Below, piece after piece: positions 9,436 to 20,076 of a DNA stretch of 20,076 nucleotides. The position numbers and the translations under genes are program-made. Where the stretch lies: positions 1 through 20,076 of the forward strand of contig JBHHXN010000092.1 of NCBI GenBank assembly GCA_046757025.1. The letters are read 5' to 3'. This stretch comes from a bacterium (lineage in GTDB: Bacteria; Zhuqueibacterota; Zhuqueibacteria; Oceanimicrobiales; Oceanimicrobiaceae). Positions within the stretch are counted from its first letter, which is position 1. Each line of letters begins with the position of its first letter. Under the pieces are notes generated by a model. The model worked only from the letters and a program-made list of their open reading frames with translations, was not told where the DNA came from and did no database searches.

Positions 9436-12400
9436 ATGTTAAGGAAAGATTCTCTTCAGATGTGGATAAACCGTACTCTGTTTTGCAAGGATACATTCTT
9501 TTGATTACGGTTTTGTCTCTTTTCTTACTATCAATAAGCAGTTCCCTTACCTTAGCCCAGCCTACGAATGCTGAGGACACAATTCTTTATTCCGAAGCCC
9601 CGATCATCTTTGAAAATGGGATCAAGAAATCCAACGCTTTAACTGTCAAGTTCCGGATCCGAGTCCTGGATCTTCCAAAGGGTGTCCGGGAAGCCGGTTT
9701 AGAACAAATCGATCCAGCTTTTTCAAATATAACCCGGTTTTTCGACGAATTGCAACTGAAGTATCCGGACGTCACGTTGCGCAAACAGATTCCAAACGCG
9801 GTCTGGGGCGACACCTTACGAGTGAATCGAAACTCTGGAAGACAGGTCAGTGTGCATGATATGTCGCAACTGTTCACCGTGAAGTTTTCGCAATTTGTGC
9901 CAATTGATTCGCTCATTCAGGAATTAGAGCAATTACCGGAAGTAGAATATGCGCATCAGCCCGTGCAGGTGATCCTGGCGGTTGACCCGGATGACCCGAA
10001 CTATCCCGCTAACCAGTGGAACTTAACCAAAGTCAATGCTGCTGCTGCATGGGATATTACCAGGGGCAGCAGCAGTATTGTTGTGGGGATTATCGATCCT
10101 AAGGGGGTAAAACGCGCTCATGAGGATTTCACAAACAGGGACCAAACCAGTCAGTTTGTCGCCGGCAAAGGAGATACCGAATTTACGGAAAGCCATGGAA
10201 CCCAGGTGGCTGGTGTAGTGGCGGCAGCGACGGACAACACGAAGGGGATTGCCAGTTTGGGGTGGAATATTAAGATGATTCCATATAAATGGGATAACGC
10301 TGAGGACTTTGATGAGGCAAGTGCGCAAAATCTTGCGAACAAAATTTTCGAAGCACGGAATGATCCAATAGATGTTCTTAACTTAAGTTTTTTTACCGGA
10401 ATAGAATTCCTAAATATTCTAGATTGTCCACCGAAAGAATGTGTGCGTTCTGAGGACTATAACAGCGTAAGAGATGAAATTGAGAATGCGATAAATAGTG
10501 GCATCATTGTGGTGGCGTCAACCGGTAACGGACCGATAAATCAACAATTGGGTAGAGGGTGGTGTTTTGATTGTGAATCTTTCCCTTACATTCCTTATCC
10601 TGCGGCTTATCCGGGTGTCATCGGCGTCAGTGCCACCGAACAAGATGACAGTTTTCACACAGGATATAATTATGAAACGGGTGATGGAGGAGAAGCTGAT
10701 TTCATCGATGTGGCTGCTCCCGGGAAAGATATCCTGAGTACATCCATTTCCGGATATTATTCAGAAGATGGCACCTCATTCGCTGCGCCCTTGGTTGCAG
10801 CGTTGGCCGGGCTTGTTAAATCAGTTAATCCAAATTTAAGTCGCAGCCAGGTTGAGCAAATAATCACATCGACTACTCTGGATTTGGGAGCCTCAGGACG
10901 TGATAACTTCTATGGCTACGGCCGCATCCAGGCCCAAGAGGCGGTTTTAAAGGCGGCTAAAAAATCTCTCAATGCAGACGCGACGGCTCACAATGGCGGG
11001 CGTCGCCTGGTTCGGGATAGTTCTGGAAACTATCACCTGATTTTTGGGTCCAACGGGGAAATATTCTACCGTAAGATAGTGGGAGGGAGTTCCTGGCAGT
11101 CTGCACACCAACTGAGCAGTGGCAACGGCAACAACAACTTTCCCTCCATTGCCGAACGCGGCGGCAAAGTCTTCGTCACCTGGCAAAGGAACACCGGCAG
11201 CAGCCACGACGTCTATTTTCACAAAAGCACCGACGGCGGCGCTTCCTGGCCGTCGGGCAACCGCCAGGTTCTTGCCACCAATGTCGGTACCTCTGACCCG
11301 CTGCCGGTTATCGCCAGTCCCGCCACCAACGAGCTCATGCTGGTCTATCGCTCAAACAGTGGTCTGGTATGGAAACGCAGTACAGATAATGGAGCAAATT
11401 GGACTACTTCTGGCGTTTTTACTGGCTCAACTTTCAACTCGCCAAGTGTGGCGCCAGGTAAAACCCCCTGGAATGCCGATATTACGGTGTTGGCTTACGC
11501 TACGGCCGAAATCCCCAATACCTCCGATATTAAAGTCGACTATCATTCCAGTAGCTGGTCAAATGAGAAAAACCTAACTTCTGACCTGCCCGGAAACCTA
11601 AGTCAACACGCTCATCCTTCCATCGCGTTCAGCGGTAACTTCAACTCCATCACCCATGTTGCCTGGGACGCTCACGATTCATTTCGGTCGGCACGGGTGA
11701 TTCTACACAAGAAGATGGGCTTCTGGAGCGTTCCCAGCACCTAACATGAATTTTATTACCAAACTGAAGACCGACCGAGTATCACGGGACTGGCGGGTTC
11801 TAAAGCAGCCATTGCCTACCGGAGAGGTTCAGCTTATGTTTTTACCCGCACCTTCGATGGCAGTTACTGGAGCAGTTTCGCATCTGCGGCCGGGATGTAC
11901 CCTTCGTTCTCTGTAGGCAGCACCCAGGCCAGGTATGTGACGACCACCGGCAGCGCCGCGCCTTATGAAATCGACCTCAGTTCAACCACCTTTAGCAAGT
12001 CCGGAGTTCTTGTTGAGAACACCGGTACCACCGAAGGAAGCAGCGATTTTGCATACCTGCGGGCTGTGGGTCTCAAAGACAAAGAATCTGGTGCCTGGTT
12101 GAACGTGCGCGTGGAGAATTTTGTGGTGAAACACAGAGATGGTAGGGTTTCGAATATTGGCTTTTCCGTTGCGCCTTCAGATACGGTCGAGTTATCTGCT
12201 GAGCAGGCCTGGTCAGCTCTGGCTTCCGCGGATTTCACCCTGCCTACCGATGCCGACAGTCTGATTGTGGTTTTCGCTGTTGCCGGTGAGAAAGTTGCAA
12301 ACCTTGCAAACGGGCCGGGCGCGCTTGAAATTTTGTTTCAAATCCAAAATCCTCTAAATAAACAACTCGATAAGAAATTTCAACCCTTAAGATTCGCATC

Positions 12401-12887
12401 TAATGACGCTTTTAGCCGGCCCCACATGCGTGTTGGATTGAGCAGCCATAGCTTTGCTTCTGGAGTTGTCTTAAACTTCAAGACCATGCTCAACAATCAG
12501 AAATCCGACAGTATTCTCGTCGCCAGTTTAGGGCATGTTTATGATTACTCAGAGAATTCTACTAGCCCGGGATTTAAACAGGCGAGCAGTACCCATAGCA
12601 ATTTATCGCGTGTATTTGGTTTAGCGCAGAACTATCCGAATCCGTTCAATCCTGAAACCACGCTCTAGTACCATCTTGAGAATGCATCTGCCGTGACCTT
12701 GAAAATATACAATCTACTGGGAAAGAAAATTCGCACTTTGGTCGAGGGCGTGCAAAGAGCCGGACTGCACGAGATTCGCTGGGATGGCAAAGACGCCCGG
12801 GGGCAAACGGTTGCTTCGGGAATTTACGTAACTAAATTGCAGGTGGGTGAACAAATTTCGGTGATAAAGATGGCACTGTTGAAGTGA
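9436..12887 (+). pseudogene. Interrupted secreted S8 (subtilisin-like) peptidase with BNR-like repeats and C-terminal sorting domain
   Basis: ORFs 9462..11744, 11895..12668 and 12693..12887 share one frame and are separated only by TAA 11742-11744 and TAG 12666-12668, with sense codons in between. The TAG splits the motif NPFNPETTL*YHL. Catalytic motifs GIID, HGTQVAG, STGN and GTSFAAP are intact. The ATG at 9436 with the best RBS is out of frame. Confidence 0.8.
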
Positions 12888-12975
12888 ATGTTGCATAGCT
12901 TGCGTCTGATTTATAATCGTGCCCGGGCATACCACTCTTTCTTTTTTATGATCGCGAACGTCCTAACATATAGAG

Positions 12976-18673: not shown

Positions 18674-18676
18674 ATT

Positions 18677-18704
18677 CAGTTTCGAGTTTGAAGTTTCGGG
18701 TTTT
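18677..18704. repeat. Degenerate 7-nt-period tandem array
   Basis: CAGTTTC GAGTTTG AAGTTTC GGGTTTT, starting 3 nt after the M48 stop. Confidence 0.6.
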
Positions 18705-18747
18705 GTCAGTTAAAAAAAACAGGTTTACGGCTAATCAATGATTTCCC

Positions 18748-18838: not shown

Positions 18839-19690
18839 ATGGGCTTAAAAGATAAAATGAAAAACGCCTGGAAACGGGTATCCGACCTGGAGGATGATTC
18901 TGCTGAGGCCAAAAGCAGCGCCAGCGAATCAGAAAGGATCCCGTTTAAAGAAATCTCCAAAAAATTAAAAGAGATCATGAAGCAGAACGTGGACGTGGTT
19001 GGCAGAAAAATTATCATCCCCAACTATTATGCCCTCTATTTCAACGAAGCCGATCGCAATTTGCGGCTGGAAGTGGAAGACGTTCTCGCCGATGAGCTGA
19101 GAGAAGAGTTGTACCACGAGATGCGCAAGATCAATCCCGAACAAAACAAACGGGAAATGCTCATCGAAATGAAAACCGACACCACGCTGAATAAAGGCGA
19201 ATTTAGAATCGAATACCACATCAAAAAGCCCGACAAAGAAACGCCCATCAAAAAATCCACCGAGATATTAACCACGGTACCGCAACCGGTGGTGGAAGAA
19301 GAAAATGACTACAAAGCCACGGTGATCGAACAGGCCAAACCGCTGGTATCAGACGACGAGCAGGCGACGATAGTCCAAAAACCGCCGGCAGAGATTCTTT
19401 ATAAAATTTCGGTGGAGTCGGATGGCAACAAAGAGGAAATCACCATCAAAAAAGATCTGATTACCATCGGCCGCAGCACCCAGGATGACGTGGTTTTAGC
19501 CAGTCCGGATTTTTCCATTTCCCGCTCCCACGCGGTCATTGAAATGCGTGATGGGGAATATTACTTGCTGCCCTCCGGCGTGAACGGTACCGTGCTCAAC
19601 GGAGAAGAGCTGGAGTTGAATAATGAAGTGAAAGTCACGCCGGAAGATGAGATCGTGATCATGAATTACACCTTGAGAATCATCCCCTGA
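18839..19690 (+). CDS. FhaA-like protein (DUF3662-like N-terminal domain, linker, C-terminal FHA domain)
   Basis: C-terminal FHA motifs ITIGRS..DDVVL..ISRSHA..NGTVLNG. The N-terminal IIPNYYALYFNEADR segment resembles the FhaA N-domain. Confidence 0.85.
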   Translation: MGLKDKMKNAWKRVSDLEDDSAEAKSSASESERIPFKEISKKLKEIMKQNVDVVGRKIIIPNYYALYFNEADRNLRLEVEDVLADELREELYHEMRKINPEQNKREMLIEMKTDTTLNKGEFRIEYHIKKPDKETPIKKSTEILTTVPQPVVEEENDYKATVIEQAKPLVSDDEQATIVQKPPAEILYKISVESDGNKEEITIKKDLITIGRSTQDDVVLASPDFSISRSHAVIEMRDGEYYLLPSGVNGTVLNGEELELNNEVKVTPEDEIVIMNYTLRIIP

Positions 19691-19733
19691 GGGATGCCAA
19701 TTCAAAATTAATTTAACACAATTAGTAACTATT

Positions 19734-19768
19734 CAGCTATTGGCATTTAGCTGTTAGCTGTTGGCCAT
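19734..19768. repeat. Degenerate 7-nt-period tandem array upstream of the four-helix-bundle gene
   Basis: CAGCTAT TGGCATT TAGCTGT TAGCTGT TGGCCAT, ending 22 nt before ATG 19791. Confidence 0.7.
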
Positions 19769-19790
19769 TGTTCATAGTTGGTTGCACACC

Positions 19791-20076
19791 ATGAGAGATT
19801 TCAGGACTCTGAATATTTGGAAAGTTGGGATTGCAAGGGAAACATGCCATGTTTAAACCTTCCAGGTTTTTAAAACCTGGAAGGTTTAGAAGTCTTTATT
19901 GTTGAAGAAAAATATGGCTTAAGAAGTCAGATTTGTCGTTCGGCTGTATCGATACCTTCAAACATTGCCGAGGGTTGCAGTCGCCGCAGCCAAATAGATT
20001 TCAAACGGTTCCTGGAAATGGCTTTAGGTTCATCGTTTGAATTGGAAACTCAATTAATTATTATTGAAGAACTATC
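19791..20076 (+). pseudogene. Disrupted four-helix-bundle protein gene (23S rRNA IVP / Avd-like family), running off the window end
   Basis: ATG 19791 gives MRDFRTLNIWKVGI.. and stops at TAA 19854-19856. In another frame from 19901 it reads VEEKYGLRSQICRSAVSIPSNIAEGCSRRSQIDFKRFLEMALGSSFELETQL, which contains the family signature S-I-P-S-N-I-A-E-G. It is absent from the ORF track. Confidence 0.85.
19854..19888. repeat. Perfect 17-bp inverted repeat (REP-like) inside the four-helix-bundle gene
   Basis: TAAACCTTCCAGGTTTT-t-AAAACCTGGAAGGTTTA. Confidence 0.85.

Follow-up and report, generated by a model that had tools for sequence, protein, structure and literature searches.

A probable IS66-mobilised cassette with a broken IVP gene between two FHA genes of a bacterial genome

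How did a gene of the PF05635 family, preceded by an array of 7-nt repeats, come to lie between two neighbouring host genes, and does its own protein account for its presence there? The question arises at the right end of the DNA analysed here (the window, 20,076 nt, which is all of contig C92 of genome G000). Proteins of this family are common, and we know of no function for them outside DGRs. An earlier note on the window had proposed that array and gene form a small unit in which the encoded four-helix-bundle (IVP) protein recognises the repeats.

The unit and its place in the host cluster

The left array (19734-19768, plus strand) consists of five 7-nt units in the order CAGCTAT, TGGCATT, TAGCTGT, TAGCTGT and TGGCCAT, and its period-7 score of 20/28 was reached by none of 5000 shuffles. 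As the earlier note described, a gap of 22 nt separates it from an ATG at 19791, and the proposed consensus YRGCYRT fits four of the five units. The gene placed at this ATG stands only in part: the ATG and a SIPSNIAEG signature are both present, and the family is PF05635/TIGR02436, but the two lie in different frames. The 5' piece (19791..19856, plus strand) retains about 15 homologous codons, followed by unrelated filler and a stop, according to an alignment with sister copies. The 3' piece (19901..20076, plus strand), in another frame, carries the signature (19949-19975, plus strand), continues past the window edge and terminates on contig C47; in profile searches, the C-terminal piece of the gene scored 81.4 bits against PF05635 (cut-off 33.8) and 82 bits against TIGR02436 (cut-off 24). 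A REP-like palindrome of 33 bp (19855..19887, no strand assigned) interrupts the gene. Because the ATG frame stops at 19856, on the edge of this palindrome, and the signature lies in another frame, the window IVP gene is a pseudogene; with the stop, the frameshift and the palindrome insertion, the window copy has no intact frame for all four helices. Elsewhere in the window (9462-12890), a gene for a subtilisin-like secreted protein shows apparent splits near 11744-11895 and near 12668, and its C-terminal sorting-type domain continues in another frame past about 12668. This split gene is possibly a pseudogene or a product of assembly errors.

The palindrome, which like the other palindromes and hairpins of this genome we take to be REP, has 22 genome copies within 6 mismatches. 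It occupies the same place in the sister copies on contigs C14 and C21 and a nearby place in the copy on C1. A single insertion before the copies spread would explain the site shared by C92, C14 and C21, but the closest sister, on C51 (96.7% identity to the window copy, compared with 85% for C14), is without the palindrome, and recurrent REP insertion or conversion is as likely as one insertion before the spread. A REP-associated tyrosine transposase was considered as the source and set aside: on C137, one perfect copy of the palindrome has a broken PF01797 ORF about 640 bp away, and no link was established. Searches of loci L071, L240 and L241 gave no Rfam match at E <= 0.1.

The remainder of the unit lies on contig C47. 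Its reverse complement starts with the last 55 nt of the window (20022..20076, plus strand), and this 55-mer was found only at these two contig ends. C47 supplies the rest of the IVP frame, the stop codon, a reverse-complementary array and right terminal repeat (C47:32950-32985), the right target duplication and the next host gene. The complementary array that had been predicted downstream of the stop is thus present, and array and gene do form a discrete unit, of 467 bp, set between two FHA genes and not within an rRNA gene. The upstream host gene (18839..19690, plus strand; Pfam PF12401 and PF00498), which has orthologues in relatives, encodes a protein with FhaA_N and FHA domains. Past a short spacer on C47 follow a second FhaA_N/FHA gene, a transpeptidase gene and an FtsW/RodA gene (G000:C47:29020-32930), so that the upstream gene is the first of a conserved, fhaA-fhaA-pbp-ftsW/rodA-like cell-wall cluster whose genes are co-oriented around the unit. 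This cluster presumably resembles the actinobacterial fhaA-rodA-pbpA cluster.

When 60 relatives were queried with the upstream FHA protein, 15 full-length orthologues were obtained, 14 of them informative in having enough downstream DNA. The orthologue of the C47 FHA gene directly follows in all 14, about 10-300 nt away, which confirms the join of C92 and C47; the adjacency of the first two FHA genes extends to other families of the class. Empty sites in relatives, which the earlier reading implied, were also found: the slot holds neither an IVP match nor IS66-type ends in 14/14 informative relatives, two of which have other REP-like hairpins there. The unit is therefore an insertion, on a between-genera comparison, as these relatives belong to other genera (54-63% protein identity) and do not provide empty alleles at the nucleotide level.

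Terminal repeats, target duplications and a candidate transposase

The earlier note overlooked that the unit is bounded by 13-bp inverted repeats, GTAACTRTTCAGC, with one mismatch. The left repeat, GTAACTATTCAGC (19725..19737, plus strand), overlaps the outer part of the array with its inner part and is of the IS66/ISBst12 type, being the same end as on the IS66 locus L093 and resembling the ends of ISDge4. Its mate, GCTGAACAGTTAC, ends at C47:32950 on the minus strand of C47 and closes the 467-bp unit. Directly outside the left repeat lies one copy of a degenerate 8-bp target-site duplication, CACAATTA (19717..19724, plus strand), with the right copy, CATAATCA, on C47. The two match at 6/8 positions, which was equalled by 1.2% of 3339 local background 8-mers. 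Duplications at the other IVP-derived copies, all with both ends on single contigs, match at 8/8 (C51), 8/8 (C90) and 6/8 (C271), and those in relatives at 7/8 (L108, L227 and L236) or at 3-6/8.

The same ends are abundant in the genome, with 43 occurrences of GTAACTATTCA where 1.6 would be expected. For the 16 strict GTAAC...GTTAC pairs, the flanks are most alike at a length of 8 bp, with an identity of 0.81 (5 exact, 9 within one mismatch), and all other lengths between 2 and 12 give 0.22-0.46; the 8-bp peak was reached by 0/20000 permutations. A looser search for end pairs recovered 34 paired elements, the majority around REP-like hairpins and four IVP-derived. About 20 REP-like hairpin elements have IS66-type ends, many with 8-bp duplications (for example G000:C20:34338-34461, C27:375-497 and C129:9742-10204), and one such element sits inside an IVP remnant on C332. 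In general, palindromic DNA seems prone to capture by IS66 ends. Copies of the window unit itself form 34 BLAST clusters in the genome; many are truncated or internally deleted, and a few consist of the REP or of a single arm.

The sister element on C51 (L241, G000:C51:10051-11747) has grown to 1697 bp and is flanked by a perfect 8-bp duplication. At the start codon of its IVP gene it carries a 284-aa ORF, with a GIY-YIG-like start recognised by eye, followed by a palindrome that we take to be attC-like; a further hairpin is also present. This insert indicates that the element can carry foreign cargo. In distant genomes, gene-less elements of 131-159 bp combine the same IS66-type end with similar heptamer arms (L113, L118, L119, L124 and L126 in UBA9088; L123 and L125 in Bacteroidota), and duplications at L123 and L125 match at 7/8 positions.

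The window element has no transposase of its own, and its copies are dispersed in the genome. A candidate source is the locus L093 in a genome of the same family (G013), where a single-ORF IS66 transposase of 512 aa (NF033517, 324 bits, cut-off 180; PF03050) lies between GTTACTATTCAGCC and GGCTGAATAGTTAC, the same ends as those of the window unit. It is the only one of 16 PF03050 loci from 40 relatives with these ends, and no matching flanking duplication was found at it. A complete IS66 element was also sought in the own assembly (374 contigs, 94.8% complete) and not found: there is no PF03050 match, and the one trace is an N-terminal transposase fragment that abuts the end of a contig and upstream of which no GTAAC end was seen. 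ISDge4, a single-ORF element of the ISBst12 group, has the ends GTGACTACTCAGCA and GTAACTGCTCAGCA, nearly the same as those of the window unit, and like the unit is flanked by an 8-bp repeat (PMC12898284). IS66 elements in Frankia also produce 8-bp repeats (PMC11946415), and IS66 elements with passenger genes have been described (PMC12888890). The 8-bp duplication together with GTAAC-type ends, as in ISDge4 and L093, thus marks the unit as IS66-like.

These ends are rare in the wider IVP family. Of 141 other IVP loci, one is bounded by IS66-type ends at left and right, and the idea that IVP cassettes in general share a target duplication was rejected, as flanking matches at 83 loci were not above chance (6-mers at 4/83 against 1.5% expected, 8-mers at none). 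To collect relatives of the window subfamily, 167 genomes of the phylum were searched at the DNA level, and GTDB genomes were scanned for an exact pattern (22 loci). Of the 18 subfamily copies that have an IS-type end on one or both sides, 17 are broken, and 8/8 copies without ends are intact. This contrast is inflated because the DNA query included the end, because kin copies do not count as independent, and because L212 and L228 were omitted, being cut by contig ends. The one exception is the C51 copy, into whose start a cargo gene has been inserted. IS66-type ends also occur in a second IVP lineage, which shares about 37% identity and has a different heptamer; 3/4 of its copies with such ends keep an open frame. 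Its duplications match at 6/8 (L049) and, by eye and beside a degenerate left end, at 8/8 (L045). On the starred branches of the protein tree, both-ended copies need at least two origins, and across the tree the end label is not more clustered than in shuffles (182/500). We infer two or more captures of plain cassettes between IS66 ends.

Heptamer arms of the IVP family and alternative explanations

Inverted heptamer arms are general for the IVP family. The genome has 9 PF05635 matches, and most of the paralogues are flanked by the period-7 repeats that the earlier note would lead one to expect, each with its own unit and mostly mirrored downstream. The number of units varies, so that the five of the window are not special. 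A wider survey took 8 loci from the own genome and, from relatives, the 69 that scored best among about 165 matches, 77 in all; 7 were dropped because of N or short flanks, leaving 70. The upstream flank was compared with the reverse complement of the locus's own downstream flank, and values above the 95% level of mismatched pairs were counted: 50/70 IVP loci passed, compared with 22/70 in direct orientation and 17/700 control small ORFs. Both flanks are period-7 at 32/70 IVP loci versus 3/700 controls. In a metagenome set of another IVP subfamily (72 of 80 loci used, with 2 dropped for short flanks and 6 as duplicates), 40/72 passed the inverted test versus 9 the direct one. Exceptions occur: the arms of L011 are swapped relative to the gene, those of L035 (in part) and L069 are direct, and several loci have a period of 8 or 9 instead of 7. 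G000:C166:1996-2878 holds a tandem pair of identical IVP genes, each of them with heptamer arms.

Such arms raise the possibility that a pentameric IVP protein binds them, in RNA or in single-stranded DNA, and acts as driver or regulator of the cassette, the dead window copy being served in trans and the IS66-like ends being secondary. Period-7 arms are indeed strongly tied to the family (82/140 single flanks compared with 28/1400 control flanks; 111/144 in the metagenome set), and no transposase footprint occurs at most cassettes. The repeat unit also tracks the protein: among 48 relatives, pairs with more than 60% protein identity share it in 67-100% of cases and less similar pairs in 0-6%; however, linkage alone predicts this pattern, so that it fits co-inheritance and does not imply recognition. 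In the homologue Avd, all five protomers take part in binding an RNA stem-loop (bioRxiv 10.1101/2023.10.23.563531), and by analogy with this structure arm binding by IVP proteins may be kept in consideration. At the window, however, the gene is broken, the other paralogues of the genome carry different units, and the same ends and 8-bp duplications also surround REP-type hairpins without IVP sequence. Protein-driven movement of the window unit is therefore quite improbable. The proposal that the unit works through its own protein recognising the repeats is not supported for this copy, since its gene is broken and the IS66-type ends and 8-bp duplication explain the insertion without an IVP protein.

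A reading at the RNA level is more doubtful still. The unit might be an intervening sequence of the operon mRNA, with arms that pair and are cut by RNase III, which would excise the unit or process the transcript, a function that would keep it in place. The unit lies between co-oriented genes, and its complementary ends are able to form a stem: the 45-nt ends pair at -37.8 kcal/mol, compared with -18.5 +/- 2.6 with the right arm shuffled (0/300). The IVS of Coxiella, with tandem heptameric repeats before the S23p gene, is cut out by RNase III (PMC4990558). The sequences show no bias towards pairing on the sense strand, however: in 107 elements, G-U pairs are not in excess over A-C mismatches (171 versus 155, or 37 versus 34 when counted by element; p = 0.81). 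Moreover, the empty slot in relatives indicates that the operon can do without the unit, and the 8-bp duplication is left unexplained. A retained mRNA-level function is thus very improbable, while RNase III cleavage of a unit transcript may occur as a side effect. That the right half is an accident of assembly, with a wrong contig join and a 6/8 duplication by chance, can practically be dismissed. The family has many copies, and public contigs, from at least four sequencing runs, are interrupted within the element and so gave no empty allele. Yet the joining 55-mer is unique to the two contig ends, the gene past the join is the orthologue of the one next to the FHA gene in 14/14 informative relatives, and in C51, C90 and C271 a single contig spans both ends.

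Origin of the unit and its relation to known systems

The window unit is probably a 467-bp, transposase-less, IS66-ended element with a broken IVP gene, inserted by an ISBst12-type transposase acting in trans, and the window copy most likely is a dead, non-autonomous IS66 (ISBst12-type) cassette. Its ancestor would have been a plain cassette with an intact IVP gene, heptamer arms and no IS ends, a type still seen in relatives. After gaining IS66 ends, such a cassette would have spread as a MIC or MITE (both defined in PMC3281130), and the transposase would have inserted a copy between the two FHA genes. With the protein no longer needed in place, the gene may then have decayed by REP insertion and internal deletion. 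In the window lineage as a whole, captured cassettes would have multiplied and later decayed into the many truncated copies. This IS66 reading is limited in that the unit's own duplication matches at 6/8 positions and its right end rests on a contig join. The IS66 mechanism covers the IS66-ended copies; it does not cover the movement of plain cassettes or the role of the IVP protein. In a broader scheme, stand-alone IVP genes would be the cores of a widespread and hitherto undescribed class of small mobile cassettes, in which an Avd-like pentamer recognises its own arms and aids transposase-less spread of the hairpin-bounded unit, and rRNA IVS, many intergenic heptamers and IS66-ended units, captured at least twice, would be habitats or debris of the class. 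We regard this scheme as rather unlikely.

The unit resembles MITEs and MICs in having no transposase of its own, short GTAAC terminal repeats, an 8-bp duplication, an intergenic position and many decayed copies. What sets it apart is the cargo, an IVP gene flanked by inverted heptamer arrays, and the occurrence of the same ends around REP-like hairpins of this genome. With the 23S rRNA IVS of Coxiella (S23p/PF05635; 428-444 nt compared with 467) it shares the protein family, stem-forming ends, heptamers just before the start codon and a decaying ORF (PMC4990558). Unlike that IVS, it lies between protein-coding genes and has IS66-type ends and a target duplication.

The DGR protein Avd (NF033474) has a homologous four-helix fold, and solved relatives are pentamers; an intact IVP paralogue matches 2GSC (5 chains) at E 5e-14. 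This paralogue is nevertheless no Avd by profile (NF033474, 28.5 bits against a cut-off of 80), and the window piece gives no match. No RT or template repeat is linked to the unit, and, in line with the earlier note, the window's ORFs include no reverse transcriptase. The sole PF00078 (RT) match of the genome is on C20, where a DGR-like locus at the contig end (L242, G000:C20:1-1843) comprises an Avd-like ORF, the PF00078 RT and an Asn-codon-rich stretch that resembles a template repeat. A tie between the window unit and the DGR of this genome was considered and rejected, as the DGR-like locus is separate.

Rehm et al. (2015) described inverted intergenic heptameric repeats in Xanthomonas and Nostoc (PMC4692102), which like the arms studied here have a period of 7, are intergenic and often form inverted pairs. 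In the accessible part of that account, they are not linked to a gene family or transposase, whereas the units studied here differ from one IVP lineage to the next. Directly after an M48 peptidase gene of the window lies a solitary, degenerate heptamer array (18674-18707); its unit type is that found at the intact IVP paralogue on C16, and it is probably cassette debris. The available portions of PMC10053308, PMC8700078 and PMC10910872 mention the IVP family without repeats or mobility. A literature search whose coverage lay mostly outside subscription journals recovered no paper that treats the heptamer arms as a general feature, connects IVP genes with IS66 ends or describes an IVP gene as cargo of this kind.

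As the window copy is dead, its own biological effect is probably small. The locus nevertheless provides one concrete route by which PF05635 genes can spread, namely capture between IS66 ends, with a candidate transposase in a related genome. It sets apart two layers, a general heptamer-armed cassette without a transposase footprint and a lineage-specific IS66 wrapper, and it offers a possible origin for some intergenic heptamer repeats, which may be the debris of IVP cassettes.
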